This document shows, piece after piece, positions 3,465 to 41,969 of a stretch of DNA of 64,000 bases (position 1 is its first letter; every line of letters starts with the position of its first letter). The notes under the pieces were generated by a model. It was not told the DNA's origin and searched no databases. It saw only the letters and a program-made list of their open reading frames with translations. The DNA comes from a virus (Duplodnaviria; Heunggongvirae; Uroviricota; Caudoviricetes). The stretch lies in the IMG/VR virus record IMGVR_UViG_3300045988_163275, positions 32,001 to 96,000 of that record. One strand, written 5' to 3'. The position numbers and the translations under genes are program-made.

Positions 3465-3794
3465 TTACGCGAATAACTCAAGGAATTCCTGCACGTCCCA
3501 ATGCTGGACAAGGTGAAGATAGAGCTTAGAAATCACGTCATTCTCGCTATCGCATGTGAAGTAGTACTTCTGGCTGCGGTTGTATGTGTCCACACAAAAT
3601 TCGCTCATATCCATAAAGTCAGCATCTTCACCCATGTCGCAAATAATCAAAGCAGGAGCATCATCACGAGTCATCAGCTCAAGCACCCAGCGCGAATTGA
3701 TCAGCGTGGAAGACCAACCTTCTAACTCATAAAACTGGTCAAACTCTTTTTGAGTCATTTTCTTGATTTGGTTGATGTCGATATTTGCAAACAT
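3465..3794 (-). CDS. hypothetical protein (109 aa)
   Basis: ATG at 3792-3794 with AAGGAT SD; track ORF extends to 3860. Confidence 0.5.
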   Translation of the reverse strand: MFANIDINQIKKMTQKEFDQFYELEGWSSTLINSRWVLELMTRDDAPALIICDMGEDADFMDMSEFCVDTYNRSQKYYFTCDSENDVISKLYLHLVQHWDVQEFLELFA

Positions 3795-3806
3795 AAAGCA
3801 ATCCTT

Positions 3807-9728: not shown

Positions 9729-11412
9729 ATTTAACGCGTTTAAAAACGTATACGCTGACAGTAATCCCGGTGTCTTCAAACATGTTAGTAAACGACTTCC
9801 CTTTGGCATAAACGTAATTATCCAGCGTCATCCAGTTTAGAATTGGCGCGTCGCCCGGCAGCACTGCTACCAGACGCCCACCGACTTTCAGATGTCCCAG
9901 CGCGGCCAACGTGTGCTCTCTGTGACGGCCAAGAGAGTAGGGCGGGTTCATGACGATTTTGTCGAACTGATAACCTGCGTTGTCCTCAGACCACTTCATG
10001 AAGTCGCAGCAGACCGTATTTGTGTACCCCTTGCCAAGCAGGATATCAGCGAAGAGAGGTGCGACTTCTATGCAGGTAACGTCTTCCGGATTGGCGTCGA
10101 TGCAGGCCAGCAGATCTCCGCGCCCGGCTTCAGGCTCCAGCAGCTTCTCACCTGGCTTCAGCTCGATGGCTCTGGCAACGTACTCCGCTATCAAACGCGG
10201 GGTAGGGTAGAACTGGTGTGATTTTGTATCCGGTATTAAGCCGGTGGCCACAATCGTATTGAGCGTATGGCCGATCTCATACGGGAACTGCCAGTGCTTG
10301 TTCTCCTGCACGCCGCCAATAAAGCTCAGTGTACGCTCCAGCTCTTCCACCTGTGACTTCTGAAGACCGGAATCAGAGAAGTACCATACGCGTTTGTCAT
10401 TGCCAGATCGCCCGTCGCGAAGCGCAGTACGCACCGGCTCGGAGATCGTCTTCTGGATTAACCCGAACTGTTTTGGTGCCCGTGTTTTGGGCGCAGTACG
10501 ACATGGAGCCGGGATTGCAGCGGGCATACTGTAAGCCAGCACCTCATTCAGCTTCCAGGCTACGTCAGGATGTATTTCAAAGTGAACGTTGCCGTTCTTA
10601 AACATCTTCACACGCATCAGGTTTCCGTCGACATTCATCCAGTCGCCGGTCTGGCAGTCATTTGCTCGATACGCAGCTGACAGCATCTCGGCCGTGCGGT
10701 TGATGGTGATAAATTCTTTGTGTGCAAAGAAATGCAACATGACGCGCAGGTCGTCTATGTAATCCTCTTTCCGGTAGTTAACGCTGACGCTGTCCCGCCA
10801 GAAATCGGAAATGCAGTCGGCGATGATCAGACGCTCGCTGAAGCCGTTCGTCTTATTGGTCTTGTGAGCAGGACTCAACGCCTTAAACAAGCCATACACG
10901 CGCTCAGAGAGATATTTGTGCCTGTCATTCAGCAAATTAAGCATCGTTGGTATGACCGTTTCTGCTTTGAACTCAGGTACACCAACGAACTCTTTAACCT
11001 TCATTTGATAGCCAGTTCTGTCAGTCTTGATCGTTTCCTGCTTGCCCTCGATAAACTGTTCACGCCACTCGTCGCGGCGGGATGCTGGCATGATCAGCAG
11101 AACGTTGGTCATATCCGTGACCTTCTTCCAGTACTCGGCCCAGATATTTTGTTTCACCCATTCCAGGTCGACTTTGTCCAGCCAGGTTCTGTTAAAGCGT
11201 GTGCGCTCGTCGTCCGGCCGGTGGTTAAGTCGCAGTAGACGGTTAATCATGTTGTGGCGTTCGTCGCCATAAACGAAGTCGTGAACCTTATTCATGAACG
11301 CAATCTCTTTCTCGCATTCGGCCACAATTTCGTGGATAACATTCATTTCCTGCCGGTAGTCAATACCGGTGTCTGGAGTGATAGAGTCAATGATGGAAAG
11401 GGCTGTATTCAT
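9727..11412 (-). CDS. putative amino-methyltransferase (likely DNA N6-adenine) with large N-terminal domain of unknown function
   Basis: C-terminal FYPTP ... LEPEAGRGDLL ... VMNPPYS motifs (AdoMet motif I then NPPY); ATG 11410-11412 (track ORF starts TTG 11430). Confidence 0.55.
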   Translation of the reverse strand: MNTALSIIDSITPDTGIDYRQEMNVIHEIVAECEKEIAFMNKVHDFVYGDERHNMINRLLRLNHRPDDERTRFNRTWLDKVDLEWVKQNIWAEYWKKVTDMTNVLLIMPASRRDEWREQFIEGKQETIKTDRTGYQMKVKEFVGVPEFKAETVIPTMLNLLNDRHKYLSERVYGLFKALSPAHKTNKTNGFSERLIIADCISDFWRDSVSVNYRKEDYIDDLRVMLHFFAHKEFITINRTAEMLSAAYRANDCQTGDWMNVDGNLMRVKMFKNGNVHFEIHPDVAWKLNEVLAYSMPAAIPAPCRTAPKTRAPKQFGLIQKTISEPVRTALRDGRSGNDKRVWYFSDSGLQKSQVEELERTLSFIGGVQENKHWQFPYEIGHTLNTIVATGLIPDTKSHQFYPTPRLIAEYVARAIELKPGEKLLEPEAGRGDLLACIDANPEDVTCIEVAPLFADILLGKGYTNTVCCDFMKWSEDNAGYQFDKIVMNPPYSLGRHREHTLAALGHLKVGGRLVAVLPGDAPILNWMTLDNYVYAKGKSFTNMFEDTGITVSVYVFKRVK

Positions 11413-11423
11413 GATTGCACCAT

Positions 11424-11456
11424 TAAACAAATTGTTTTCTTATTGGTGTTATTTTC
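11424..11456 (-). promoter_or_regulatory. leader motif A copy
   Basis: TAAACAAATTGTTTTCTTATTGGTGTTATTTTCTC upstream of 11412. Confidence 0.5.
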
Positions 11457-15800: not shown

Positions 15801-16394
15801 TTACGCTGCCTTTTTACGTGGTCTCTTCTTCCTGACAACATTGGCAGGGTCATAACCACCCAGCTTTTTCATCACCGCCAGCGGTATCTTGCTGATGGTG
15901 TGCCCAGCTTCCTGACAGTAGCCACGGAAGATAAGCAACATGCTGCCACCAGGGTTGATGTTCACCTCCACCAGCCCAAGTTCAACATCCGGCTCAACGA
16001 ACGCCACGCGGCCGCCAGACAAGATGACGGTTTCGTTGGCGCATTCAGCCGCACGCTCGTACCACTGCGTATCGAGGGATTGTGGTATCAGCATGACCGT
16101 CGTCACTCCACGCGCCTGCTCGCGAATGGCTGCGTCTATCCAGGGGGTGATTTTGGAGTAGGGCGGGTTAAGGAACGCCACAGTGCCAGGTTCTCCCCAA
16201 CTGCACTTGAGCGCATCACGCTCAACACCGATAAAGTTCGGCAGGAGAGCATTATCTTTGTTGCAGGCGACGTCCACATCGAACTTTACGCCTATGTAAC
16301 GTTGGATGGCGACAAACAACCACTGCGGTGTGCGCCAAAGGTCGCGAAGAGAGGCATCACGCTCTCGCTTTTTGATTTTTTCGGCTGCGATCAT
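15801..16394 (-). CDS. dam: phage-type DNA N6-adenine methyltransferase (Dam family)
   Basis: DLWRTPQWLF ... DVACNKDNALLPNF ... FLNPPYS signature; ATG 16392-16394. Confidence 0.8.
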   Translation of the reverse strand: MIAAEKIKKRERDASLRDLWRTPQWLFVAIQRYIGVKFDVDVACNKDNALLPNFIGVERDALKCSWGEPGTVAFLNPPYSKITPWIDAAIREQARGVTTVMLIPQSLDTQWYERAAECANETVILSGGRVAFVEPDVELGLVEVNINPGGSMLLIFRGYCQEAGHTISKIPLAVMKKLGGYDPANVVRKKRPRKKAA

Positions 16395-28883: not shown

Positions 28884-28969
28884 AATTCTTGTTCAAATAA
28901 TTTTGTCCGGGGCAACGATAACGGATAAGGCGCACCGGAGTTTGCAAATGCCTGTTTACTTATTCACTT

Positions 28970-29045
28970 TATTCACAGGCCCGATCCAATATTTAGATCC
29001 CCAGAGAGATCCTACAGAAGATCAAAAGAGATCCCCGATCGTCTC
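28970..29045. promoter_or_regulatory. GATC-rich origin-like element (6 GATC in ~60 bp), unit 1
   Basis: CACAGGCCCGATCCA ... AGATCC repeats; near-identical block again at 29346-29416. Confidence 0.55.
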
Positions 29046-29077
29046 CAGCGCTTGCGGTTACTGGCTTGAGAAGGGGT

Positions 29078-29183
29078 TACTATCCACTATAGGGAGCAAA
29101 ATAACCACTGTAGAGAGCATAATAACCGCTATGAAGAGCAAAACAACCTCTCTGGAGAGTAGTCGGTATCCACTGTAGTGAGT
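29078..29183 (+). repeat. iteron cluster A (5 direct repeats, ~21-bp period)
   Basis: consensus (A)TAACCACTGTAGAGAGT at ~29078, 29099, 29119, 29140, 29165. Confidence 0.8.
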
Positions 29184-29345
29184 AGGAGACAATGTTTTAA
29201 CTGGATAACTCCGAGCCTGTTTTTCTGCGGCAGATGGCTGATATTCTTGGAAATATTGTAAATTTTGCGTTGCGGCGTGTTTATTTCGATCACACATTAT
29301 CCCCAGAAGGGGAGTGATGCCTGATTTTGTAATTATCTGATTTTT

Positions 29346-29416
29346 ATACACAGGCCCGATCCAGTAATTCAGATCCCTGTTAGAACCAAAGAGAACCACA
29401 AAGACCCAAAGAGATC
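29346..29416. promoter_or_regulatory. GATC-rich origin-like element, unit 2
   Basis: second copy of CACAGGCCCGATCCA-N-AGATCCC plus GAGATCC. Confidence 0.5.
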
Positions 29417-29461
29417 CCCGGACCCTGCAAACCGTTGTGCCACATGGCTTTAGAGGTTATC

Positions 29462-29585
29462 GATATCCACTATAGCGAGAATAACAACCACTATGGAGAG
29501 TAAATCAACCACTATGGAGAGTAGAAAAACCGCTGTAGGCGGTAGGATAACCACTGTGATGGGTGCTACTATCCACTGTAATCAG
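29462..29585 (+). repeat. iteron cluster B (6 direct repeats) immediately upstream of repA
   Basis: six ~19-bp repeats at ~22-bp spacing ending 40 bp before repA ATG. Confidence 0.8.
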
Positions 29586-29625
29586 TAAAGGCACCCAAGC
29601 CGTCGAATAAAAAGAGACATTTGGA

Positions 29626-30681
29626 ATGAGCGTAAACGACAATAAAAACATTGCGATAAGCGAAGCATTTTCCGAAACAGACAAAAAGACCGGCGAAGTT
29701 GTTACGTTAGTTCCTAACACCAACAACACAGTTCAGCCTGTTGCTCTGATGCGTCTTGGTCTCTTCGTTCCGACGCTGAAATCGACATCCAGGGGTAGAA
29801 AGGGGCAAATGGTCTCTATGGACGCCTCCGCTGAACTCAAACAGCTGTCTCTGGCCAAAGCCGAAGGGTACGAGGATATAAGGATTGCTGGTCTTCGTCT
29901 TGATATGGATAACGATTTCAAAACATGGGTGGGCATCATCCACGCGTTCGCCAAGCACAAGGTTGTTGGTGACACCGTCACGTTGCCGTTCGTCGAGTTC
30001 GTCAGACTTTGTGGCATACCAACAGCCAGATCGTCCGCGAAGTTACGTAAGCGCCTGGACAGCTCTCTAAGTCGTATCGCCACAAACACCATCTCATTCC
30101 GCAGCAAAGGCTCTGAAGAGTATTACGTTACGCACCTTGTGCAGACGGCAAAGTACAGTACCAAGAATGACACGGTCGAACTGAAGGCCGATCCTAAGAT
30201 TTTCGAACTTTACCAGTTCGACAAAAAGGTGCTTTTGCAACTTCGGGCCATCAACGAACTCTCCAGAAAGGAATCCGCGCAGGCGCTCTACACCTTCATT
30301 GAAAGTTTGCCACCAGACCCGGCGCCAATCTCATTGGCTCGCTTACGCGCCAGACTTAACTTAACCAGCCGCACCATTACCCAGAATGCGACAGTCAGGA
30401 AGGCGATGGAGCAACTGCGAGAGATCGGCTATCTCGATTACACTGAAGTGAAACGCGGCAGCTCGGTCTACTTCGTCATCCACTATAGACGGCCGAAGTT
30501 ACGTTCGGCACTGCCGCCATCTATGGCCACGCCTGAAGATCCAGAAGATATCTTGCCAGGTGATGATCCGGAGGACATTATCGATGTTGCTCCTGAAGAA
30601 AAAGACGGGGAAATGGTCATGTTGAGCAAGGAAGAACTGGCGATTCTCGAAGAGCTGCGCAAGGCAAAGGCTCGCAAATAG
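29626..30681 (+). CDS. repA: plasmid replication initiator RepA (iteron-binding)
   Basis: flanked on both sides by iterons; [61 protein letters not shown] blocks resemble P1-type RepA as I recall it. Confidence 0.8.
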
Positions 30682-31247
30682 CCCAACCACTGTAGAGAGT
30701 AAAAAGGCTCACTATCCACTGTAGTGAGCCTTTTTGTTTATCGGAAATGCAATATCCACTGTAGTGAGTAAAAGAAACCGAAGAATAACCACTGTAGGCA
30801 GTGCGCACAAATCGCGAAGTAAATGTTAGTGGTTGCAAACATAGATAAAACAAGGGCTGAGAGGTTAGCGGTCACTGGGTATCCATGTTAAGTCTACTCT
30901 CTACAGCGGTTATCGTCGCTCTCTTCATTGTTGACTATCCACTGTGAAGAGCAGAATTGGCTGACTTGACCTTTATCCACTGTAGTGAGTGGATATCTGT
31001 TTAAAACAGCGAAGATTTACTCTCCATAGTGGATATCCGCTGGAGGAGGCATTCCATCACTCTCTATAGTGGTTGTTTGTAGTCAGTGAACGCCTGTTTA
31101 CTCACTACAGTGGATAGTTGATATCGTGGCAGAGGGTTTGCTCACTACAGTGGTTGGGGTGCATACCTGAAGGGTGTTCTACTCGCTACAGTGGTTATGA
31201 GCCGGATTCACACACGGTGAGCTGGCTACTCACCGCAGTGGATAGTG
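30682..31247. repeat. downstream iteron field (~13 repeats in both orientations)
   Basis: direct copies at ~30682, 30710, 30750, 30782, 30933, 30971; inverted copies at ~30891, 31017, 31058, 31097, 31137, 31176, 31225. Confidence 0.8.
30703..30735. terminator. bidirectional terminator-like hairpin after repA (embeds one iteron)
   Basis: AAAAAGGCTCAC-TATCCACTGT-AGTGAGCCTTTTT. Confidence 0.5.
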
Positions 31248-31996: not shown

Positions 31997-32013
31997 TATT
32001 TTTGCTGTTAATA

Positions 32014-32325: not shown

Positions 32326-32777
32326 AATGGGCGCTATAAGGCGCACAATCATTGTGTTCAGGCTGGTGGAAAGAACTTCTCCAGCGTGTGGTTGATAGCC
32401 TTATCAATGTGCATCAGGTGGCCAAATTCAGTGTGCCACTTCACTCGAACCCCAAGACCGGCAATGGAATCGCTTTGTAGAGCTAGAGTTAGTGCCGCAT
32501 CCTCGTATTGAGCACAGCGAAGCGATTGAGCTAGACTATGGCATGACGGGGGGCGCTCTAAAGGTTGAGATTAGAGCGGCCTCGGCAGGCTACTTACTCA
32601 GACAATGGAATGTGGATTGTTCTACCAACGCCACACTCCAAGATGGTGGAGCTCAATTGTACTTAAAGAACAGAGCAACACTTTATGGAGTTAAAAACAT
32701 CATGCTAGCTCCAGGGATTGAAAAAGAACTTGGTAACTAATGCACAAAAACGAACTTGGCGCAGAGAATAAATTTTG

Positions 32778-35700
32778 ATGAAAATAATCGATAACCTTAA
32801 CAACCTATTAGGTGACGAGCTTCAACAGACGCTGACACCGAATACAAAGTTAAAGATTGCTGCGTCTTGCTTTTCTATTTATGCGTATGAGGCTCTCAAA
32901 AAGGAGTTAGCGAAGATAGACTCACTTGAGTTCATCTTCACATCACCTACTTTTGTCGCAGATGAAGTTACCGATAAATTCAAAAAAGAAAAACGAGAGT
33001 TCTTTATTCCCAAAGCAGGGCGTGAACGCAGCCTTTACGGAACTGACTTTGAAATACAGTTAAAGAACAAGCTCACTCAAAAGGCGATCGCCAAAGAGTG
33101 TGCAAACTGGATCAGAAAGAAAGCGACATTCAAATCAAACAAAACTGATTCTCCAATGCAGTCGTTTGTTGTGACGGAAGCACCTAGACAGCAAACAGAG
33201 ACAATGAGTGCAGTTTTTGCTCCGGTTAGCGGGTTTACGGCGGTTGATCTAGGGTATCAGCGAGGAAATGCTATTTCGAATTTTGTGCAAAAAATCGATG
33301 AGCCAAATTTCACAGCCCAGTACTTACAGTTATTCGACCAAATTTGGAAAGACCCTGCGAAGCTTCAAGATGTTACTAAAACAATTTGCGAGCATATAGA
33401 GTCTGTCTACCAGGAAAACTCGCCTGAGAAAGTCTATTTCATTATTTTGTATAACATTTTTAATGAGTTCCTTGATGATATTACAGAGGATGTATTACCA
33501 AATGATCGAACCGGCTATCAGGACACCTTGATTTGGAACAAGTTATTCAACTACCAAAAAGATGCCGCGACTGGGATTATCAATAAGTTAGAGACCTATA
33601 ACGGCTGCATTCTGGCTGATAGTGTTGGTCTTGGTAAAACATTTACAGCGTTAGCTGTCATCAAGTATTACGAGCTCAGGAACAAGTCCGTACTTCTACT
33701 GTGTCCGAAAAAATTGGCAGATAACTGGCTCAACTTTAATCGAAACTTAAAGACAAATATTTTTGCTAAAGACCGTTTTAGTTACGATGTTTTGTGTCAC
33801 ACAGATTTGAGTCGAACCTCTGGCGAATCCTTCGGTACTCCGTTGAATAGAATAAACTGGGGTAACTATGACTTGGTCGTCATTGATGAGTCGCATAACT
33901 TTAGAAATAACGATGCAGTGAAAGATCGAGAAACTCGATATCAGAAACTGATGAATAAAGTGATTCGCGCTGGCGTAAAAACCAAGGTGCTGATGCTATC
34001 AGCGACACCAGTGAATAACAGATTTACTGACCTGAGAAACCAGCTCGCGTTAGCTTATGAAGGCGAGTCGAGCAATCTCACAAAGCATCTTAAAACCACA
34101 AAAAGCGTAGAACAGATCTTCAACCAAGCACAAGCCGCATTTAACGCTTGGTCCAAACTCGACCCAGAGACGCGAACAGCTAAAGCCATACTCGATGCCT
34201 TAGATTTTGACTTTTTTGAACTGCTTGATAGCGTCACTATCGCTCGCTCACGAAAGCACATCACAACTTTCTACGACACAACAGATATTGGCCATTTCCC
34301 TGAACGTAACAAGCCAATCTCGTTTCATTGTCCGCTTACTACTCGTTCGGATGTAGTAAGCCTGAATGAGATCTTTGAACAGCTTAAGCTACTCAAACTA
34401 TCTGTTTATGCGCCAGTGAGTTATATCCTCCCGAGTAGATTGAAGAAATATGAGGAGATGTATGACACGGAAGTTGAAGGCGGAAAAGGTAAGTTAAAGC
34501 AAAGCGACCGTGAAAAAAGTTTGGTTGCATTGATGACAACGAACCTCCTAAAGCGTCTTGAGAGCTCCGTATACTCGTTCAGAAGCACCTTGCAATCTCT
34601 CCATGATAACCATGTTCGTGTTCTAGGTATTATCGACGAATTCTATAAGCGAGACGGGCAAACCGAAGTGAGCAGTCTCGTTGAAGCGCTAGAGTCTATT
34701 GAAGCAGATGAAGACGATATGCCTTCTTATCACGATATGGAAATCGGTAACAAAATCAAAATTAAGCTAATGGATATGGATCTTCCATCCTGGCAGCAGG
34801 ATTTAGATGGCGATTTGGAGCTGATCAAAGGGTTACTAGATTCTGTTAGCAAAATTAAGCCAGAAGAAGATGCTAAGTTGCAGCATCTGAAATCACATAT
34901 TGCTGCAAAAATAAATAATCCGATAAATCCTGGAAACCGGAAAATCATCGTGTTCACGGCGTTTGCTGACACCGCTCAGTATCTGTACGAGCAGTTGTCA
35001 CCTGTGATGTTAAGCGAGCATAGAATCCATACTGCGATGATCACTGGTGGTGCCAGTTTACCTAAGACCACCTTAAAAACCGGACGAAAAGGTTACGACA
35101 CACAAGAAGTGCTCACCTTGTTTTCTCCAGTTTCCAAATCGAAAGCCAGTGTATTACCTGACGAACCCGCTGAAATCGATTTGTTGATTGCTACAGACTG
35201 TATCTCTGAAGGGCAGAACTTACAGGATTGCGATTACTTAATTAACTTTGATATTCATTGGAATCCAGTTCGGATTGTTCAGCGCTTTGGGCGTGTTGAC
35301 CGTATTGGCTCGGCGAATAAATGTATTCAGTTAGTTAACTACTGGCCTGATATATCGCTGGATGAGTACATCAACTTAAAAGAACGTGTTGAAAGTCGAA
35401 TGACGATTGTTGACGTAACAGCGACCGGTGATGACAACGTTCTAAGTTGTCAAGCGAATGATGTGTCGTACCGTAAAGAGCAGTTAAAGAAACTACAAGA
35501 AGAAGTCATCGAGCTTGAAGATTTAAAAACGGGGGTTTCTATCACCGATCTAGGTCTAAACGAATTTCGAATGGACCTGCTAAATCTAATGAAACTCTAC
35601 GGCGAACCAAGAAATGCACCAAGCGGCATGCATGCGGTGGTTGAGGCTAAGCCAGAATTAGGGTTATTGCCTGGCGTGGTGTTTGCGCTGAAAAACGTTA

Positions 35701-36110
35701 ATAACAGTATCGATAGAGATCTGCAAAACAGGCTCCACCCTTATTACCTTGTCTATGTATCGAATGAAGGGGACATCGTCGCTAATCATTTTGAGGTAAA
35801 GAGACTATTAGATTTAATCCGAAGTAGCTGTAAAGGTCAAACAGCACCGCTCAGTGAGATTTGTGCTTTATTTAATCGCTTAACGCAAGACGGTCGAGAT
35901 ATGCAGTGTTACTCTCACCTTCTAACAGATGCCATAAAAAGCATGGTTGAAGTTAAGGAAGAAAAAGATATTGATAGTTTGTTCAATGGTGGCGCTACCT
36001 CAGCTTTAGTGAATACATTTGCCGGGCTTGATGACTTTGAATTGCTGGCATTTATTGTGATCCAGCAAAAGCAGCTGATGGAAAACAGTGCCCAGGATGA
36101 GGTTAGCTAA
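32778..36110 (+). CDS. SNF2-family helicase with ~250-aa N-terminal domain of unknown function
   Basis: motif I ADSVGLGKTFTA, motif II LVVIDESHNFRN, motif III LMLSATPVNN, C-terminal helicase motifs ATDCISEGQNLQDCDYLINFDIHWNPVRIVQRFGRVDRIGS; 1110 aa; AT-rich. Confidence 0.85.
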   Translation: MKIIDNLNNLLGDELQQTLTPNTKLKIAASCFSIYAYEALKKELAKIDSLEFIFTSPTFVADEVTDKFKKEKREFFIPKAGRERSLYGTDFEIQLKNKLTQKAIAKECANWIRKKATFKSNKTDSPMQSFVVTEAPRQQTETMSAVFAPVSGFTAVDLGYQRGNAISNFVQKIDEPNFTAQYLQLFDQIWKDPAKLQDVTKTICEHIESVYQENSPEKVYFIILYNIFNEFLDDITEDVLPNDRTGYQDTLIWNKLFNYQKDAATGIINKLETYNGCILADSVGLGKTFTALAVIKYYELRNKSVLLLCPKKLADNWLNFNRNLKTNIFAKDRFSYDVLCHTDLSRTSGESFGTPLNRINWGNYDLVVIDESHNFRNNDAVKDRETRYQKLMNKVIRAGVKTKVLMLSATPVNNRFTDLRNQLALAYEGESSNLTKHLKTTKSVEQIFNQAQAAFNAWSKLDPETRTAKAILDALDFDFFELLDSVTIARSRKHITTFYDTTDIGHFPERNKPISFHCPLTTRSDVVSLNEIFEQLKLLKLSVYAPVSYILPSRLKKYEEMYDTEVEGGKGKLKQSDREKSLVALMTTNLLKRLESSVYSFRSTLQSLHDNHVRVLGIIDEFYKRDGQTEVSSLVEALESIEADEDDMPSYHDMEIGNKIKIKLMDMDLPSWQQDLDGDLELIKGLLDSVSKIKPEEDAKLQHLKSHIAAKINNPINPGNRKIIVFTAFADTAQYLYEQLSPVMLSEHRIHTAMITGGASLPKTTLKTGRKGYDTQEVLTLFSPVSKSKASVLPDEPAEIDLLIATDCISEGQNLQDCDYLINFDIHWNPVRIVQRFGRVDRIGSANKCIQLVNYWPDISLDEYINLKERVESRMTIVDVTATGDDNVLSCQANDVSYRKEQLKKLQEEVIELEDLKTGVSITDLGLNEFRMDLLNLMKLYGEPRNAPSGMHAVVEAKPELGLLPGVVFALKNVNNSIDRDLQNRLHPYYLVYVSNEGDIVANHFEVKRLLDLIRSSCKGQTAPLSEICALFNRLTQDGRDMQCYSHLLTDAIKSMVEVKEEKDIDSLFNGGATSALVNTFAGLDDFELLAFIVIQQKQLMENSAQDEVS

Positions 36111-36113
36111 TCT

Positions 36114-36800
36114 ATGTACTCACCTTGGATATTTCCTGACAAAGCAAAGTTCGGTCGAGTCGTGCCGAAGAACAAAATATACGAACACAGCGCGGCAAGC
36201 GCTGGATTGAAGTCACTTTTTGTAGAGCAAGTAGAGCAAATCCTTTGGGCTTACAAGCTATCGCCTAGCACGCTGAATATTCCTCAAACCAGTGAGGTCA
36301 GTGAAATACAGGTTTTCAGTGTGAAGCTTAAAGGTGACTCGATAGACGACAGCGTACTAAAAGCCATTGATTTGGCGATACCTTTTCCCATTCTATTTGA
36401 GGTATGGGAAGCTCGCGGTGAGCAAGGCCACTACGTTGCTTGCTATAAGCGTAAGGCAGAAAATGATCAGTCAAAATGGTTTTGTAGCCGCTATTTACGC
36501 TCAGAAACCTTCTATTCAAGTGATTCATTAGCAGTGACTTCAGAAGTTTTGGGGTTGCCTACCGCCATCGATATGGCGGAGCTGTATCAAAAGCTTCTTA
36601 CTCGCTTGTTACCCATACCCCAACGAGCCGCTGAGAGTATTGAAGAGGTCATTGAACGCTTGATGGCAATTCAGGCATTGGAAAAGCAAATCTCGCAATA
36701 TAAGAAGAAGGTTCATGCCGAGAAACAGTTTAACCGCAAGGTTGAGCTCAATAAGCAGTTAAAGAATTTAAGGTGCGAGCTTCAAGAGTTACTCGCATAA
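36114..36800 (+). CDS. 228-aa protein of unknown function, coiled-coil C-terminus, coupled to the helicase
   Basis: ATG 3 nt after helicase stop; C-terminal heptad-rich segment; no catalytic motif seen. Confidence 0.7.
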   Translation: MYSPWIFPDKAKFGRVVPKNKIYEHSAASAGLKSLFVEQVEQILWAYKLSPSTLNIPQTSEVSEIQVFSVKLKGDSIDDSVLKAIDLAIPFPILFEVWEARGEQGHYVACYKRKAENDQSKWFCSRYLRSETFYSSDSLAVTSEVLGLPTAIDMAELYQKLLTRLLPIPQRAAESIEEVIERLMAIQALEKQISQYKKKVHAEKQFNRKVELNKQLKNLRCELQELLA

Positions 36801-36873
36801 AGAATAAACAATTTCAATCAGTTAAATAGTGCCACATGCTTTTTATGCAAGGCATCACGCAAAAGGTGAACAC

Positions 36874-38796
36874 ATGGACAAATTAAAGATGCACAGCCCC
36901 GACATGACGCAGCAAAACATAGAGAAAATTCAGGCGTTGTTTCCGAACTGCGTGACGGAATCAAGAGGAGCTAACGGAGAGCTAAAGTTAGTCATTGATT
37001 TTGACCAACTTAAACAAGAGCTATCAAATTCAATCGTTGAAGGCCCGCAAGAGCGCTATCAGCTGAACTGGCCCGGTAAGCGAGAAGCACTACTAACAGC
37101 GAACGCACCTATTGCAAAAACATTAAGACCTTGTCGAGAAGAAAGTGTTAATTTTGATACCACAGAAAACCTCTTTATTGAAGGTGATAACCTTGATGCG
37201 CTAAAAATGTTGCAAGAAACCTATTTGGGCAAGGTTAAGGTGATTTATATAGATCCGCCCTATAATACGGGTAAGGATTTTATATACGAAGACGATTTTG
37301 CTGAAAATTCTGATGGGTTTTTGAAGCGGTCAAATCAAAAGGATGAAGAAGGCAATCGCCTTGTAGCCAATACCGATTCCAACGGTCGCTTTCACTCAGA
37401 CTGGTTGAGCATGATATTTTCGAGACTTAAACTTGCACGCAATATACTAAGTAGTGATGGAATTATCTTTATTAGTATAGATGAAAACGAGCTTGATAAC
37501 CTCTTGAAAATAGGAAAGGAAATATTTGGTGAAGAGAACCACATAACTACGTTTTGTTGGGAAAAAAAGAAGAAACCATCTTTTCTTAATAAAAATGTAG
37601 GTTCGAAATTCGAGTATATTGTCACCTTTTCAAAGAATCGTGATTACACAGGTGCATTTTCCATTGATCTTACAACTGAAGGTAAAAAGTACCCCCTGAA
37701 TAATGCAGGGAACTCACTCGGAAACCTTGTTTTTCCAGCAGGTTCGGTACGATTCAACTTGCCAGACCAGATTATAGAACCGCAAGATATGTCTGAGGGT
37801 AAAATAAAAACCAGGTTAATTAATAGGTTGGAAATAATTGGAGGTAAAAACGTTAATGAATTTATCCTTGAGGGTGAATGGAGATATTCTCAGAATAGAT
37901 TAAATGAAATTCTAGAAAATCGAGAAGAAATTATAATCAGCAAAGTTCCGTTTAGGCCAAATCATGTAAAAGCAGGAGGTGAGATAAAAAAAATGCACAA
38001 CCTCCTAAGTGTCGCTCATTATAAAGTTTCAACTAATGAGGATGCGGATGCCGAAAGTTCAGAGTTGATGGGGAATAAATACTTTGATTACACCAAGCCT
38101 TCAAATTTAATCAAACTATTAATCCAAGCAATAACTTATGACGATCAAGAATGTCTAGTATTAGATTTTTTTGCGGGTTCATCAACAACCGCCCATGCCG
38201 TGATGCAACTTAATGCAGAAGATGGCGGAAATCGAAAATTTATCATGGTTCAGTTGCCTGAAGAGTGTGATAAAAAATCAGAAGCCTTCAAAGCTGGCTA
38301 CAAAACAATTGCTGAGATATCAAAAGAACGCATCCGCCGTGCTGGTGCAAAAATATTAGAAGGGGAGTGCCACAAAGACTGGAATAAAGACGTTGGTTTC
38401 CGAGTGCTTAAAGTTGATACATCCAATATGGCCGATGTCTACTACTCGCCAGAGCAGGTTTCTCAGGGTTCGTTAGACTTATTGGTAGATAATATTAAAT
38501 CAGACCGCACTGATGAAGATTTACTTTTCCAGGTTCTACTTGATTGGGGCGTCGATTTAACCTTGCCAATTAGAAAAGAAACGATTCAAGGTAAATCGGT
38601 ATTCTTTGTCGATGATGATGCACTGGTGGCCTGTTTTGATCTGCGCATAAATGAAGCTTTGATTAAAGAGTTAGCCATAAAAGAACCTCTTCGCGTAGTG
38701 TTCCGTGATGACGGCTTTGAATCTGATGCAGTAAAAATCAATGCTGAGCAGATTTTCAAGCAAGTGTCGCCATATACTGAAGTTAAAGCGATTTAA
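36874..38796 (+). CDS. mod: Type III restriction-modification Mod subunit (beta-class N6-adenine methyltransferase)
   Basis: [13 protein letters not shown] ... [23 protein letters not shown] (motif IV) precedes [16 protein letters not shown] (motif I); ~640 aa; ATG with AAGGTG SD (track ORF starts GTG 36829). Confidence 0.85.
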
Positions 38797-38891
38797 GGGG
38801 GGAGCATGACAAATTTTACCGGATTAAAATTTGCACACAGCCTTGTCGCAGACAAGGTGTGCCCAAAGGGTTGCGTACAGGGAGGTGCGCA

Positions 38892-41800
38892 ATGAAACTT
38901 AAATTCAAAGTCCAGCCTTATCAAACTGTTGCCGTAGAGTCGGTTGTTGACTGCTTTGCGGGGCAACCTAATACCTCCGGTATAACCTACCGAATCGATC
39001 CTGGCATTGCCAAAGATAAATTTGGCAATGCTGGCTGGGATATGAGTGACCAGGATGGGTTTAAAAATGCTGAACTTGCGATCACTGAATCGCAGTTATT
39101 GCAAAATATCCATGGTGTTCAAAGTAGACAGAACCTCCCTGTTTCAGAAGCGTTAGCCAGCAATGCTAGCTCTAAGATTAATCTCGATGTTGAAATGGAA
39201 ACCGGTACAGGTAAGACATATTGCTACATCAAAACTATCTTTGAGATGAATAAACGCTATGGCTGGAGCAAATTTATTATCGTAGTGCCTAGCATTGCCA
39301 TTCGTGAAGGTGTTTACAAGTCGCTACAAATCACAGGTGAGCATTTTGCCCAGAATTACAACGGTAAAAAGGCACGGTTTTTCATCTATAACTCAAAACA
39401 ATTGCACCAGTTAGAGAGTTTTTCTTCTGACAGTGGCATCAATGTCATGATCATTAATATTCAAGCCTTTAATGCATCAGGAAAAGACAATCGACGTATT
39501 TATGAAGAGTTGGATGACTTCCAGTCTAGGCGTCCTATTGATGTTATTAGTGCAAACCGTCCAATCCTGATTTTGGATGAGCCGCAGAAGATGGAAGGTA
39601 AGAAGACATTAGATGCCTTAGCCAAATTCAAACCACTGATGGTACTTCGATATTCGGCCACGCATAAGACAACACATAATAAGGTGCATCGTCTGGATGC
39701 TCTTGACGCTTATAACAATAAGCTGGTTAAGAAAATTGCAGTTCGTGGTATCTCAGTAAAGGGTTTAGCGGGCACTACAGCCTATCTATATCTGGAATCC
39801 ATCGAAATCTCAAAAAAAATGCCAGTGGCTCGTATAGAGATCGAGGTTAAACAACAAAATGGCATCAAACGCATACCCAAGAAGGTCACTAAGGGCGATA
39901 ATCTTTTTGATCTTAGTAATGGTTTGGACCAGTACCGTGATTTTGTGGTTACTGATGTCAACGCGATTAACGACACAGTTGAATTCAAAAATGGCCATGT
40001 TTTAACCGCGGGCGATGCCACGGGAGACGTGACCGAAGAGACCATTCGCCGCATACAGATTCGCGAGACAATTAAAGCACACCTTGAAAAAGAAAAAATA
40101 CTTTTTAACCAGGGTATAAAGGTTCTCTCTCTCTTTTTTATTGACGAAGTCGCAAAGTATAGGGACTACTCTCAAGCCGATGAAAAAGGTGATTATGCTC
40201 GCGTTTTTGAAGAAGAGTATTCCTTGCTTGTACAGGAGTATCTTGATGAGTTGTCCCTTTTGCCAAGTGAGCAGACTGATGCCTATAAAGCCTATCTATC
40301 GGCCATTGAAGGCTCTAGAACGCATAATGGTTACTTCTCAATTGATAAGAAATCAAATCGTCTTCAGAACCCCGGCTTTAAAGTCCGTGGTGAAGATGCC
40401 GGGCTATCAGACGATGTAGATGCCTATGATTTGATTTTAAAAGATAAGGAAAAGTTACTTTCGTTTGAAGAGCCTACTCGATTTATCTTTTCACACTCGG
40501 CCTTGCGCGAGGGGTGGGATAATCCAAACGTATTTGTCATGTGTATGTTGAAACACAGCGACAATACTATCTCTCGTCGTCAAGAAGTTGGACGTGGTTT
40601 ACGTCTGGCCGTCAATAAACATGGTGACAGACAAGATCATCCGGCAACTGTGCATGAAATTAATGTCTTGTCGGTGATTGCAAGTGAAAGCTATAAAGAC
40701 TTTGTCACGAATCTGCAAAAAGAGATCAGCGAGTCTCTCTCAGCGAGACCTAGAAAAGCAGATGAAGCTTATTTTACGGGTAAGACAATTACAACAGCTG
40801 ATGGACCTGTAGAAGTAACACCTGTCATGGCTAAGCAAATTTATAAGTATTTGCTTAAAAATGATTATACCAATGACGTTGACGATTCAATTGCGCCATC
40901 ATTCCACCAGGCTAAGGCTAGTGGGCAGTTAGCGCCAATGCCTGCTGAGTTAGAGCCTTACCGCGAGCAAATATTGACCCTGATTGACGGTGTTTATAGT
41001 GAAGCGCAATTGCCAGGTGTTGGTGATGATCGTAAACCTAAAAACAATCCGTTGAATGCTAATTTTGATAAGAAAGAGTTTCAGGAGCTTTGGCACAAAA
41101 TCAATCGCAAAGCGGTTTATAAGGTTGATTTTGATTCGTCTGAGTTGATTAAAAATTGTATTCGGGTACTCAATAAAGAGCTTAAGGTAACGCCTCTTCA
41201 GTACACGATTCAAGATGGTGTTCAATTGGATGGCATTACCGACGAACAACTCAAAGCTGGACAAAGTTTCAAGGTGAAAAACACTGAGACTGAAACTCAT
41301 CAATCGAGCATTCATTCTGCTGTTCGTTATGACTTGGTTGGTAAGTTGGCTGAAAATTGTGTGCTGACTCGCAAAACAGTCGCCGAAATACTGATGGGTA
41401 TAGAACCTGTAGTATTTGCACAATTTAAGCAGAACCCTGAGCATTTTCTCGCTGAGGCTTCACGCCTTGTGAAAGAGCAAAAGGCATCTGTGATCATCGA
41501 GAAGCTATCATATGATCCAACGAACGAATCTTATGATGTTGATATATTCACGGCAGAGCAAAAAATCACTGATATGACAAAAGCCGTTAGTGGCGTTAAT
41601 AAGCATATTTATGATTATGTTGTCGTTGATTCACAAGGCATTGAACGGGACTTTGTTACCGAGCTTGATACAAGCAAAGAAGTCGTGGTTTATGCAAAAC
41701 TGCCTCGTGGTTTTCTGATACCGACGCCTGTTGGCGACTACAACCCTGATTGGGCGATTTCTTTCAAAGAAGGAAGTGTTAAACACATTTACTTTATTGC

Positions 41801-41969
41801 AGAGACTAAAGGAACGATGTCTTCGCTTGAATTGCGTGGCATAGAAGATCGCAAGATTGAATGTGCTAGGAAATTCTTTGAAAAAATTAATGCAGAGATA
41901 ACGAGTGAAAACGTCAAATATGATGTTGTAACGAGTTACTCGAAATTAATGGAAGTCATAAGCGGTTAG
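38892..41969 (+). CDS. res: Type III restriction enzyme Res subunit (helicase + PD-(D/E)xK nuclease)
   Basis: [23 protein letters not shown]-terminus, Walker [20 protein letters not shown]; C-terminal YNPDWAISF ... [10 protein letters not shown] nuclease motif; strong GGGAGGTG SD. Confidence 0.85.

Follow-up and report, generated by a model that had tools for sequence, protein, structure and literature searches.

We analyzed the replicon in a 64,000-nucleotide stretch of a Caudoviricetes genome (IMG/VR record IMGVR_UViG_3300045988_163275, positions 32,001 to 96,000), here referred to as the window. The replicon is built around repA, which encodes an initiator protein and is flanked by arrays of short repeats (iterons). 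Its origin core, consisting of a DnaA box, GATC repeats, and iterons, is present upstream of repA as two tandem copies 375 bp apart, of which we call the one farther from the gene the distal module and the one nearer to it the proximal module. In the list below, T denotes an iteron of the TATCCAC subtype and a denotes one of the AACCAC subtype.

28960-29208: distal origin module, with tandem DnaA boxes, six GATC, five iterons, and a right-hand DnaA-like box.
28960-28977, plus strand: tandem DnaA boxes at the left end of the distal module, which align with the annotated DnaA-binding site of P1 oriR.
28983-29040: GATC block 1, with six GATC in AGATCC-type repeats, the homologue of the Dam-site core of P1 oriR.
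29079-29185, plus strand: iteron cluster 1, with five direct copies in the subtype order T-a-a-a-T.
29186-29343: inter-module spacer, poorly conserved, with 50-54% of columns variable, and holding a DnaA-like box and a site resembling those of integration host factor (IHF).
29200-29208, minus strand: DnaA-box-like element TTATCCAGT, with 2 mismatches, at the right end of the distal module.
29330-29342, minus strand: IHF-like site AATCAGATAATTA, with 1 mismatch to WATCAANNNNTTR, directly upstream of the proximal DnaA box.
29344-29588: proximal origin module, with one DnaA box, three GATC, and six iterons; it abuts repA.
29344-29352, plus strand: proximal DnaA box TTATACACA, a consensus box in which one of nine columns is variable in relatives.
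29358-29416: GATC block 2, with three GATC and with three internal repeats changed to GAACC, GAACC, and GACCC.
29462-29588, plus strand: iteron cluster 2, with six direct copies in the subtype order T-a-a-a-a-T.
29626-30681, plus strand: repA, encoding a 351-amino-acid initiator of the Rep3 family (WH1/WH2).
30682-31246, both strands: downstream iteron array, the equivalent of P1 incA, with 13 iterons (6 forward and 7 reverse).

The region is the maintenance replicon of a phage-plasmid of the SSU5/pHCM2/pMT1 type and belongs to the P1/RepFIB family of iteron replicons. Over 2.5 kb it is 99.5% identical to about 106-kb Escherichia coli plasmids typed IncFIB and 89.6% identical to Salmonella phage SSU5, with which its flanks are also syntenic (a 214-amino-acid open reading frame upstream and a 71-amino-acid Cra-like one downstream). 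The Yersinia pestis pMT record that we examined is about 90% identical in the upstream region, and 63 of the 340 PLSDB plasmids that match the region come from Yersinia. Elements of this group make up most IncFIB-typed phage-plasmids (PMC7969092); a preprint focused on phage-plasmid repA was set aside as not relevant, as it covers an unrelated CopA/CopT-type replicon. The RepA protein matches the Pfam domain Rep3_N (E = 2.4e-11), with Rep3_C falling slightly under the cutoff. By BLASTP it is 64% identical to RepA of F RepFIB (E = 2e-144) and 49% identical to P1 RepA (E = 1e-92), and it shares 92.9% identity with SSU5 RepA and 70% with the Rep protein of a Pantoea plasmid. A sequence search of the PDB returned no match to RepA.

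The order of elements in the region is that of P1. In the P1 record (AF234172), oriR comprises, in order, a DnaA site, five Dam sites, and five incC iterons, within which PrepA lies; repA and nine incA iterons come after it. The two upstream modules of the window are each colinear with this annotated oriR, from the DnaA boxes through the AGATCC repeats and a CTGGCTT linker to five iterons phased at 21 bp. The arrangement typical of the family, one or more DnaA boxes followed by a GATC cluster and iterons phased at ~21 bp, is thus found twice (28960-29185 and 29344-29588), and a second iteron array of wider spacing and mixed orientation lies downstream of repA. When read from the sequence, the P1 incA iterons comprise 3 forward and 6 reverse copies, and mixed orientation is therefore a family trait. 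An earlier note on this DNA had described an iteron replicon with repA between iteron arrays and a tandemly duplicated GATC-plus-iteron module, and that description holds. The DnaA box and six-GATC block also match about 2,500 further plasmids at roughly 79% identity, mostly IncFIB plasmids of Klebsiella; the iterons of these plasmids are unrelated to those of the window.

To count the iterons, we built a 21-column matrix from hand-listed copies and scanned both strands of the 64 kb. The scan returned 24 sites with scores of 18.8-31.4 bits, all confined to 29079-31246, while the best non-iteron site scored 14.9 bits. The distribution, 5 + 6 upstream and 6 + 7 downstream, matches the earlier count of about 24 repeats, with 11 upstream in two clusters and ~13 downstream in both orientations. 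Cluster 1 iterons start at 29079, 29100, 29121, 29142, and 29165 (spacing of 21/21/21/23 bp), and cluster 2 iterons start at 29462, 29483, 29504, 29525, 29546, and 29568. The downstream array begins after the repA stop codon and has a spacing of 40-41 bp for most copies, with forward iterons starting at 30682, 30711, 30751, 30784, 30934, and 30972 and reverse iterons at 30894, 31017, 31057, 31098, 31138, 31179, and 31226. Eleven of the 24 iterons carry TATCCACT (the TATCCAC type), and the other 13 carry (T/C)AACC(A/G/T)C, mostly AACCAC. In all relatives examined, the TATCCAC subtype occupies the first and last positions of each upstream cluster, and this placement at the cluster edges is a real, conserved pattern; in the clade about 78% identical to the window, the second cluster reads T-T-a-a-a-T.

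Two further observations concern iterons outside the upstream clusters. The downstream array ranges from 11 to 18 iterons among relatives, and its size changes among otherwise near-identical replicons: 13 in the window, 14 in relative L010, 15 in SSU5, 12 in Cyrano, and 18 in CP088502.1 (L009), where an expanded run of 41-bp units with AACCAC-type iterons lies at 2033-2801. Such differences could correspond to different copy numbers or incompatibility strengths. In addition, a half-strength iteron-like site, GTCATCCACTATAGACGGCCG (30475-30495, plus strand, 14.5 bits), lies inside repA, where it overlaps codons of the conserved RepA motif VIHYRRP; it may be a chance match or a weak internal RepA site.

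The distal module begins with DnaA box TTATTCACT at 28960-28968, which has 1 mismatch to the consensus TTATNCACA, followed by the consensus box TTATTCACA at 28969-28977. With the proximal box and a DnaA-like box in the spacer (TTATCCCCA at 29297-29305, 1 mismatch), the total comes to four DnaA boxes of no more than one mismatch in a stretch of about 400 bp, where the window as a whole has 0.9 per kb. P1 has two DnaA-box arrays, one of them upstream of the unwinding element, and an IHF site beside one of the arrays (PMC4980987). At the right end of the distal module, TGGATAACT at 29200-29208 is invariant in all clades. A DnaA box after the iterons is also seen elsewhere: as a reverse consensus box in relative L005 and in a Pantoea plasmid (NZ_CP143419.1, L040), and as a forward DnaA-like box in P1 and in Klebsiella pneumoniae NZ_CP026134.1 (L004). 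In the last of these records, a coding sequence annotated as "RepB family" starts inside the five upstream iterons (3683-3803); the RefSeq start looks misannotated, and the real start is probably the ATG at 3804, after the box TATCCACA.

The GATC density reported in the earlier note was found as described, with six GATC at 28983-29040 and three at 29358-29416, and both blocks do open with CACAGGCCCGATCCA (at 28973 and 29348). What had gone unnoticed is that the CACA opening each block is the end of a consensus DnaA box. The window contains 264 GATC, or 4.1 per kb. Six GATC in 58 bp has a Poisson probability of 2e-7 for any one 58-bp interval and about 0.014 window-wide, and this density was reached in none of 200 shuffles. 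The count of three in block 2 is not significant by itself and is meaningful only because block 2 is homologous to block 1; it has a ~10-nt insertion and retains the 10-bp phasing of the repeats. The two modules had been called near-identical, which overstates their likeness: they are about 75% identical over 219 aligned bases and reach 89% only in the first ~27 nt (28968-28994 versus 29343-29369), a similarity present in both the window clade and the SSU5 clade. In the 78% clade, the two module starts differ, one being the P1-like CACTGGATAGATCCA and the other CACAGGCTCGATCCA (L007, 1568-1590 and 1945-1965). The similar starts elsewhere suggest gene conversion between the modules or replacement of one start by recombination.

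Two other ideas about the region were discarded. The spacer is not a recognizable relic of a duplicated repA 5' end, its similarity to the repA leader being no higher than in shuffles. GC skew was uninformative as an origin marker, as its cumulative minimum, near 26-32 kb, falls where gene orientation changes and a low-GC island lies.

We next compared the tandem arrangement across relatives. P1, F RepFIB, a pKpn-type phage-plasmid, and an IncFIB/IncHI1B plasmid each have one origin module with 5-6 GATC, which points to a single module as the ancestral state. With the two-module region as the query, 333 PLSDB records covered at least 80% of it, and 333 matched at 80% identity or more, all of the latter with the duplication. 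A pattern search of contigs, which required only two DnaA-box/GATCCA starts (i.e., both modules), recovered 4 genome contigs (two Kluyvera, Y. pestis, and Buttiauxella) and 23 IMG/VR contigs. These relatives form three clades, whose identity to the window is 99%, 90%, and 78%. In each of the contigs the distal block has six GATC and the proximal one three, and all but four loci have 5 and 6 upstream iterons; the four are each one short at the score threshold (three loci of the ~78% clade lack one cluster 1 iteron, and L034 has five in cluster 2). Neither the 333 PLSDB records nor the contigs (4 genome and 23 viral) included a single-module variant of the lineage; the pattern search of contigs, by requiring both modules, could not have recovered one.

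In an alignment of six sequences that included the ~78% clade (L007 and Cyrano), the GATC blocks and iteron clusters had 76-84% invariant columns and the spacer 54%; the proximal GATC block was at 84% and the distal block at 76%. Across the relatives aligned, 14 of the 68 columns of the proximal block are variable. In the distal block, all 24 GATC columns are invariant among 24 distinct sequences, compared with variation in 16 of the 40 other columns (hypergeometric P = 1.3e-4, or 4.2e-4 when the first GATC, a requirement of the search pattern, is left out). At the three positions of the proximal block where GATC has been lost, every sequence reads GAACC or GACCC, with the 10-bp phasing retained, which argues that this block is constrained and not decaying. 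By these comparisons, the tandem duplication is selected rather than decaying. The arrangement is invariant in all sampled relatives and has apparently never been tested; the literature that we searched, which did not include the 1998 pMT1 sequence papers, contained no description or test of the double module.

Expression signals were also examined. A candidate repA promoter was identified by eye in cluster 2, an extended -10 element (TGcTACTAT) at 29564-29572, and the TAGGAT at 29543-29548 is the hexamer annotated as the -10 of P1 PrepA; both promoter-like elements are present in the proximal module only. A scan for consensus promoters and terminators gave matches no more common than in shuffles, and none was placed for repA. 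An Rfam scan of 28.8-31.4 kb gave one sub-threshold chance match and no evidence of a regulatory RNA.

From this anatomy, homology, and conservation we infer a set of binding events, a dependence on Dam, and a division of labor between the modules. By homology with characterized replicons, RepA monomers would bind the phased 19-21-bp iterons, host DnaA would bind the boxes flanking them, and the duplex would open in the adjacent AGATCC repeats, where Dam methylation would be required. Hemimethylated origins would be sequestered, and the 13 downstream iterons would titrate RepA and pair with (handcuff) the origin iterons, so that copy number would be held down. Methylation-gated initiation, which the earlier note had proposed, is the expected behavior: both modules show base-for-base homology to P1 oriR, in which the five GATC carry the annotation of Dam sites. 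The distal copy (28960-29208), which retains every origin feature, would be the firing, Dam-gated origin. The proximal copy (29344-29588) differs from it in having three GATC fewer, a single left-hand box, no right-hand box, and a sixth iteron gained; its main function would be that of an autoregulated promoter/operator for repA and of an additional site for RepA binding or pairing. On balance, we lean slightly toward this assignment of the methylation-gated origin to the distal module and of the repA operator to the proximal one.

Several points weigh against that assignment. The evidence for it comes from sequence comparison throughout, and its Dam dependence is carried over from P1 and from REPI of pColV-K30. 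Conservation of the proximal GATC block equals or exceeds that of the distal block (84% versus 76% invariant columns), which argues for a specific role beyond that of an operator only. Both modules of the Pantoea plasmid retain 4-5 GATC, and both may be origins. In addition, the single origins of P1 and F occupy the position that corresponds to the proximal module. Finally, the consensus scan left repA without a promoter, so that the candidate is one extended -10 element read by eye.

A broader scenario, which we put forward tentatively, is an old tandem duplication whose copies have split their roles. One copy would be the Dam/SeqA-gated origin; the other would have shed methylation sites, kept its phasing, DnaA box, and iterons, and now act as a methylation-blind second origin or as a dedicated operator/pairing module, and the TATCCAC iterons at the cluster edges might be low-affinity DnaA sites. 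If the second copy were a dedicated operator/pairing module, RepA autoregulation would be separated from origin firing, two functions that overlap in the one iteron set of P1.

It is also conceivable, but unlikely in our estimation, that the roles are the reverse of those that we favor, with the proximal module as the working origin and the distal one as an accessory, either an enhancer upstream, which would load DnaA and RepA, or an additional control locus, which would pair with the origin. In P1, F RepFIB, the pKpn-type phage-plasmid, and L005, the single origin lies where the proximal module does, and the DnaA box and GATC block of this module are the best-conserved parts (1 of 9 and 14 of 68 columns variable). 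However, only three of its six GATC remain, with internal repeats among those lost, and a right-hand DnaA box is missing, whereas the distal module keeps the complete P1-like set, with GATC under site-specific selection.

That both modules are functional origins appears somewhat less probable again. One would be fully dependent on Dam and SeqA and the other largely insensitive to methylation, for use under other conditions, such as establishment after infection or altered Dam activity of the host or state, or as a backup. P1 can use its second DnaA-box array as a secondary origin, according to a review (PMC4980987). In the window lineage both modules are conserved, each with a consensus DnaA box and phased iterons, and the proximal block, which retains its 10-bp AGAnCC phasing, is specifically without the methylatable T/A; in the Pantoea relative, each module still has 4-5 GATC. 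A block without the GATC repeats would nonetheless be expected to be weak, as the P1 repeats are reportedly needed for opening (work of Abeles and Austin).

We consider it improbable that the iterons double as DnaA boxes, such that DnaA and RepA would share or compete for sites. The idea draws on TATCCACT, which occurs in 11 of 24 iterons and is fixed at both ends of the upstream clusters in the relatives examined, and on TTATCCACT, which the P1 record annotates as part of its DnaA site. The earlier note had placed TTATCCACT, one mismatch from the DnaA box, in several iterons, but it is present in exactly one of the 24 (30973-30981). This is the only iteron with one mismatch or fewer to TTATNCACA; 10 of 24 have two mismatches and 13 of 24 have three or more. 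A T precedes TATCCAC in only 1 of 11 cases, and at the last position, for which the box calls for A, the base is T in every case. Clear boxes lie outside the iterons, at 28960, 28969, 29297, and 29344. Because the Pantoea iterons are almost all of the AACCAC type, and because the iterons of F RepFIB share the 3' half CTGTAGTnAGT but not the DnaA-like 5' half, the resemblance looks like drift of a RepA site. F RepFIB, the pKpn-type phage-plasmid, and P1 have unrelated iterons beside the same DnaA/GATC core, which likewise marks the resemblance as lineage specific. Least credible of all is a neutral relic in which one copy is a decaying, functionless pseudo-origin: the proximal block has lost three GATC, but both copies are retained in every relative down to 78% identity, each with a constant GATC count, iteron counts are constant too except for three or four sub-threshold iterons, and the 160-bp spacer has diverged freely while the lost GATC positions are fixed.

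The question of which methylase would gate the origin involves a gene elsewhere in the window:

15801-16394, minus strand: gene for a phage-type N6-adenine DNA methyltransferase of the Dam family, 197 amino acids, outside the replicon.

The earlier note was correct that the element carries a Dam-family methylase gene, as the product matches PF05869 (E = 5e-37) and TIGR01712 (111.6 bits against a cutoff of 97). Enterobacterial hosts possess Dam, and single-module relatives on ordinary plasmids (F and IncFIB) carry the same GATC block; since the hosts have Dam and plasmids without such a gene share the block, the phage methyltransferase is not needed to explain the origin. The part of the earlier proposal that tied methylation gating to the element's own Dam is therefore speculative. 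Dam dependence of P1 oriR and of RepFIB/REPI has been reported, according to titles cited in PMC2865523.

Other methyltransferase genes were observed in the window. A 570-amino-acid protein encoded at 9730-11439 on the minus strand combines a DUF4942 match with an NPPY methyltransferase motif and weakly matches PADLOC mad2; it is a second candidate DNA methyltransferase of the element. Downstream of the iteron array, at a distance of about 1.5 kb, a low-GC island on the plus strand (32775-41966; GC of 0.40-0.43 versus about 0.49 elsewhere) encodes an HKD+Snf2 helicase (1111 amino acids), a DUF4391 protein, a Type III methyltransferase (656 amino acids), and a Type III restriction enzyme (1060 amino acids). 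The island looks like an acquired defense cassette; SSU5 carries other genes at this position.

The Y. pestis virulence plasmid pMT1 is one of the elements of the SSU5/pHCM2/pMT1 type, and antibiotic resistance genes are frequent on phage-plasmids in general (PMC9600943). Their maintenance replicon is usually annotated as "repA" only. The two-copy map of P1-oriR type presented here places the DnaA boxes, Dam sites, origin iterons, and control iterons in a precise and testable way, and it should be useful for incompatibility-based curing cassettes and mini-replicons; for curing cassettes, a 2025 FIB study in Nucleic Acids Research (NAR) advised the use of controlling (downstream) iterons only. 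The duplication also amounts to a natural experiment on two points: whether origin firing and repA autorepression, both carried out by P1 incC, can be pulled apart physically, and to what extent an iteron origin needs Dam gating. Since replicon type and mechanism otherwise follow the textbook, the general significance is modest.

Among known systems, pMT1 (Y. pestis), pHCM2 (Salmonella Typhi), and SSU5 have the same replicon as the window, with about 90% nucleotide identity, two modules, 6 + 3 GATC, and 5 + 6 iterons; they differ from it in point substitutions and in the number of downstream iterons (13 in the window and 15 in SSU5). The pMT1 replicon is functional, since the cloned replicon cures pMT1 by incompatibility (PMC6199537). 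The closest characterized RepA, at 64% identity, is that of RepFIB, found in F, P307, and pO157 and equivalent to REPI of pColV-K30. F RepFIB likewise has a DnaA box followed by GGCCCGATCCAGTAA, which opens its GATC block, and the 3' half of its iterons, CTGTAGTnAGT, is common to both replicons. It differs in having a single origin module and in the 5' half of its iterons, which is ATAAGC rather than the TATCCAC or AACCAC of the window. The upstream iterons of RepFIB (BCDD') belong to the origin and the downstream ones (E-K) to control and handcuffing (PMC11983097).

The P1 replicon, which like that of the window is the plasmid-prophage replicon of a phage-plasmid, has a homologous RepA and the same tandem DnaA boxes, GATC repeats, CTGGCTT linker, and five 21-bp-phased iterons, base for base, along with a downstream control array with iterons in both orientations at a spacing of 30-41 bp. 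In contrast, P1 has one origin core where the window has two in tandem, its iteron sequence (GATGTGTGCTGGAGGGAAA) is unrelated, it has 5 GATC and 9 incA iterons compared with 6 + 3 GATC and 13 iterons, and its RepA (286 amino acids) is without the N- and C-terminal extensions of the window protein (351 amino acids).

The 180-kb plasmid of Pantoea agglomerans (NZ_CP143419, rep_cluster_807) shares the iteron family and the two tandem modules upstream of rep, and a consensus reverse DnaA box follows its first module. Its modules (2030-2640) differ from those of the window in containing 5 and 4 GATC and 5 + 5 iterons, nearly all of the AACCAC type, and in repeating at a period of 344 bp rather than 375 bp. 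Pairwise identities, all 61-68%, do not settle the orthology of its modules with those of the window, and a shared duplication, independent duplications, and gene conversion are indistinguishable on this basis. The plasmid is typed as such, and no phage context was seen within the stretch examined, which indicates that the two-module architecture is not limited to phage-plasmids. Set against these systems, the replicon type of the window was already known, as its sequence long has been, and the conserved tandem duplicate of the origin core, in which one copy has been stripped of half the Dam sites, is a variant specific to this lineage.

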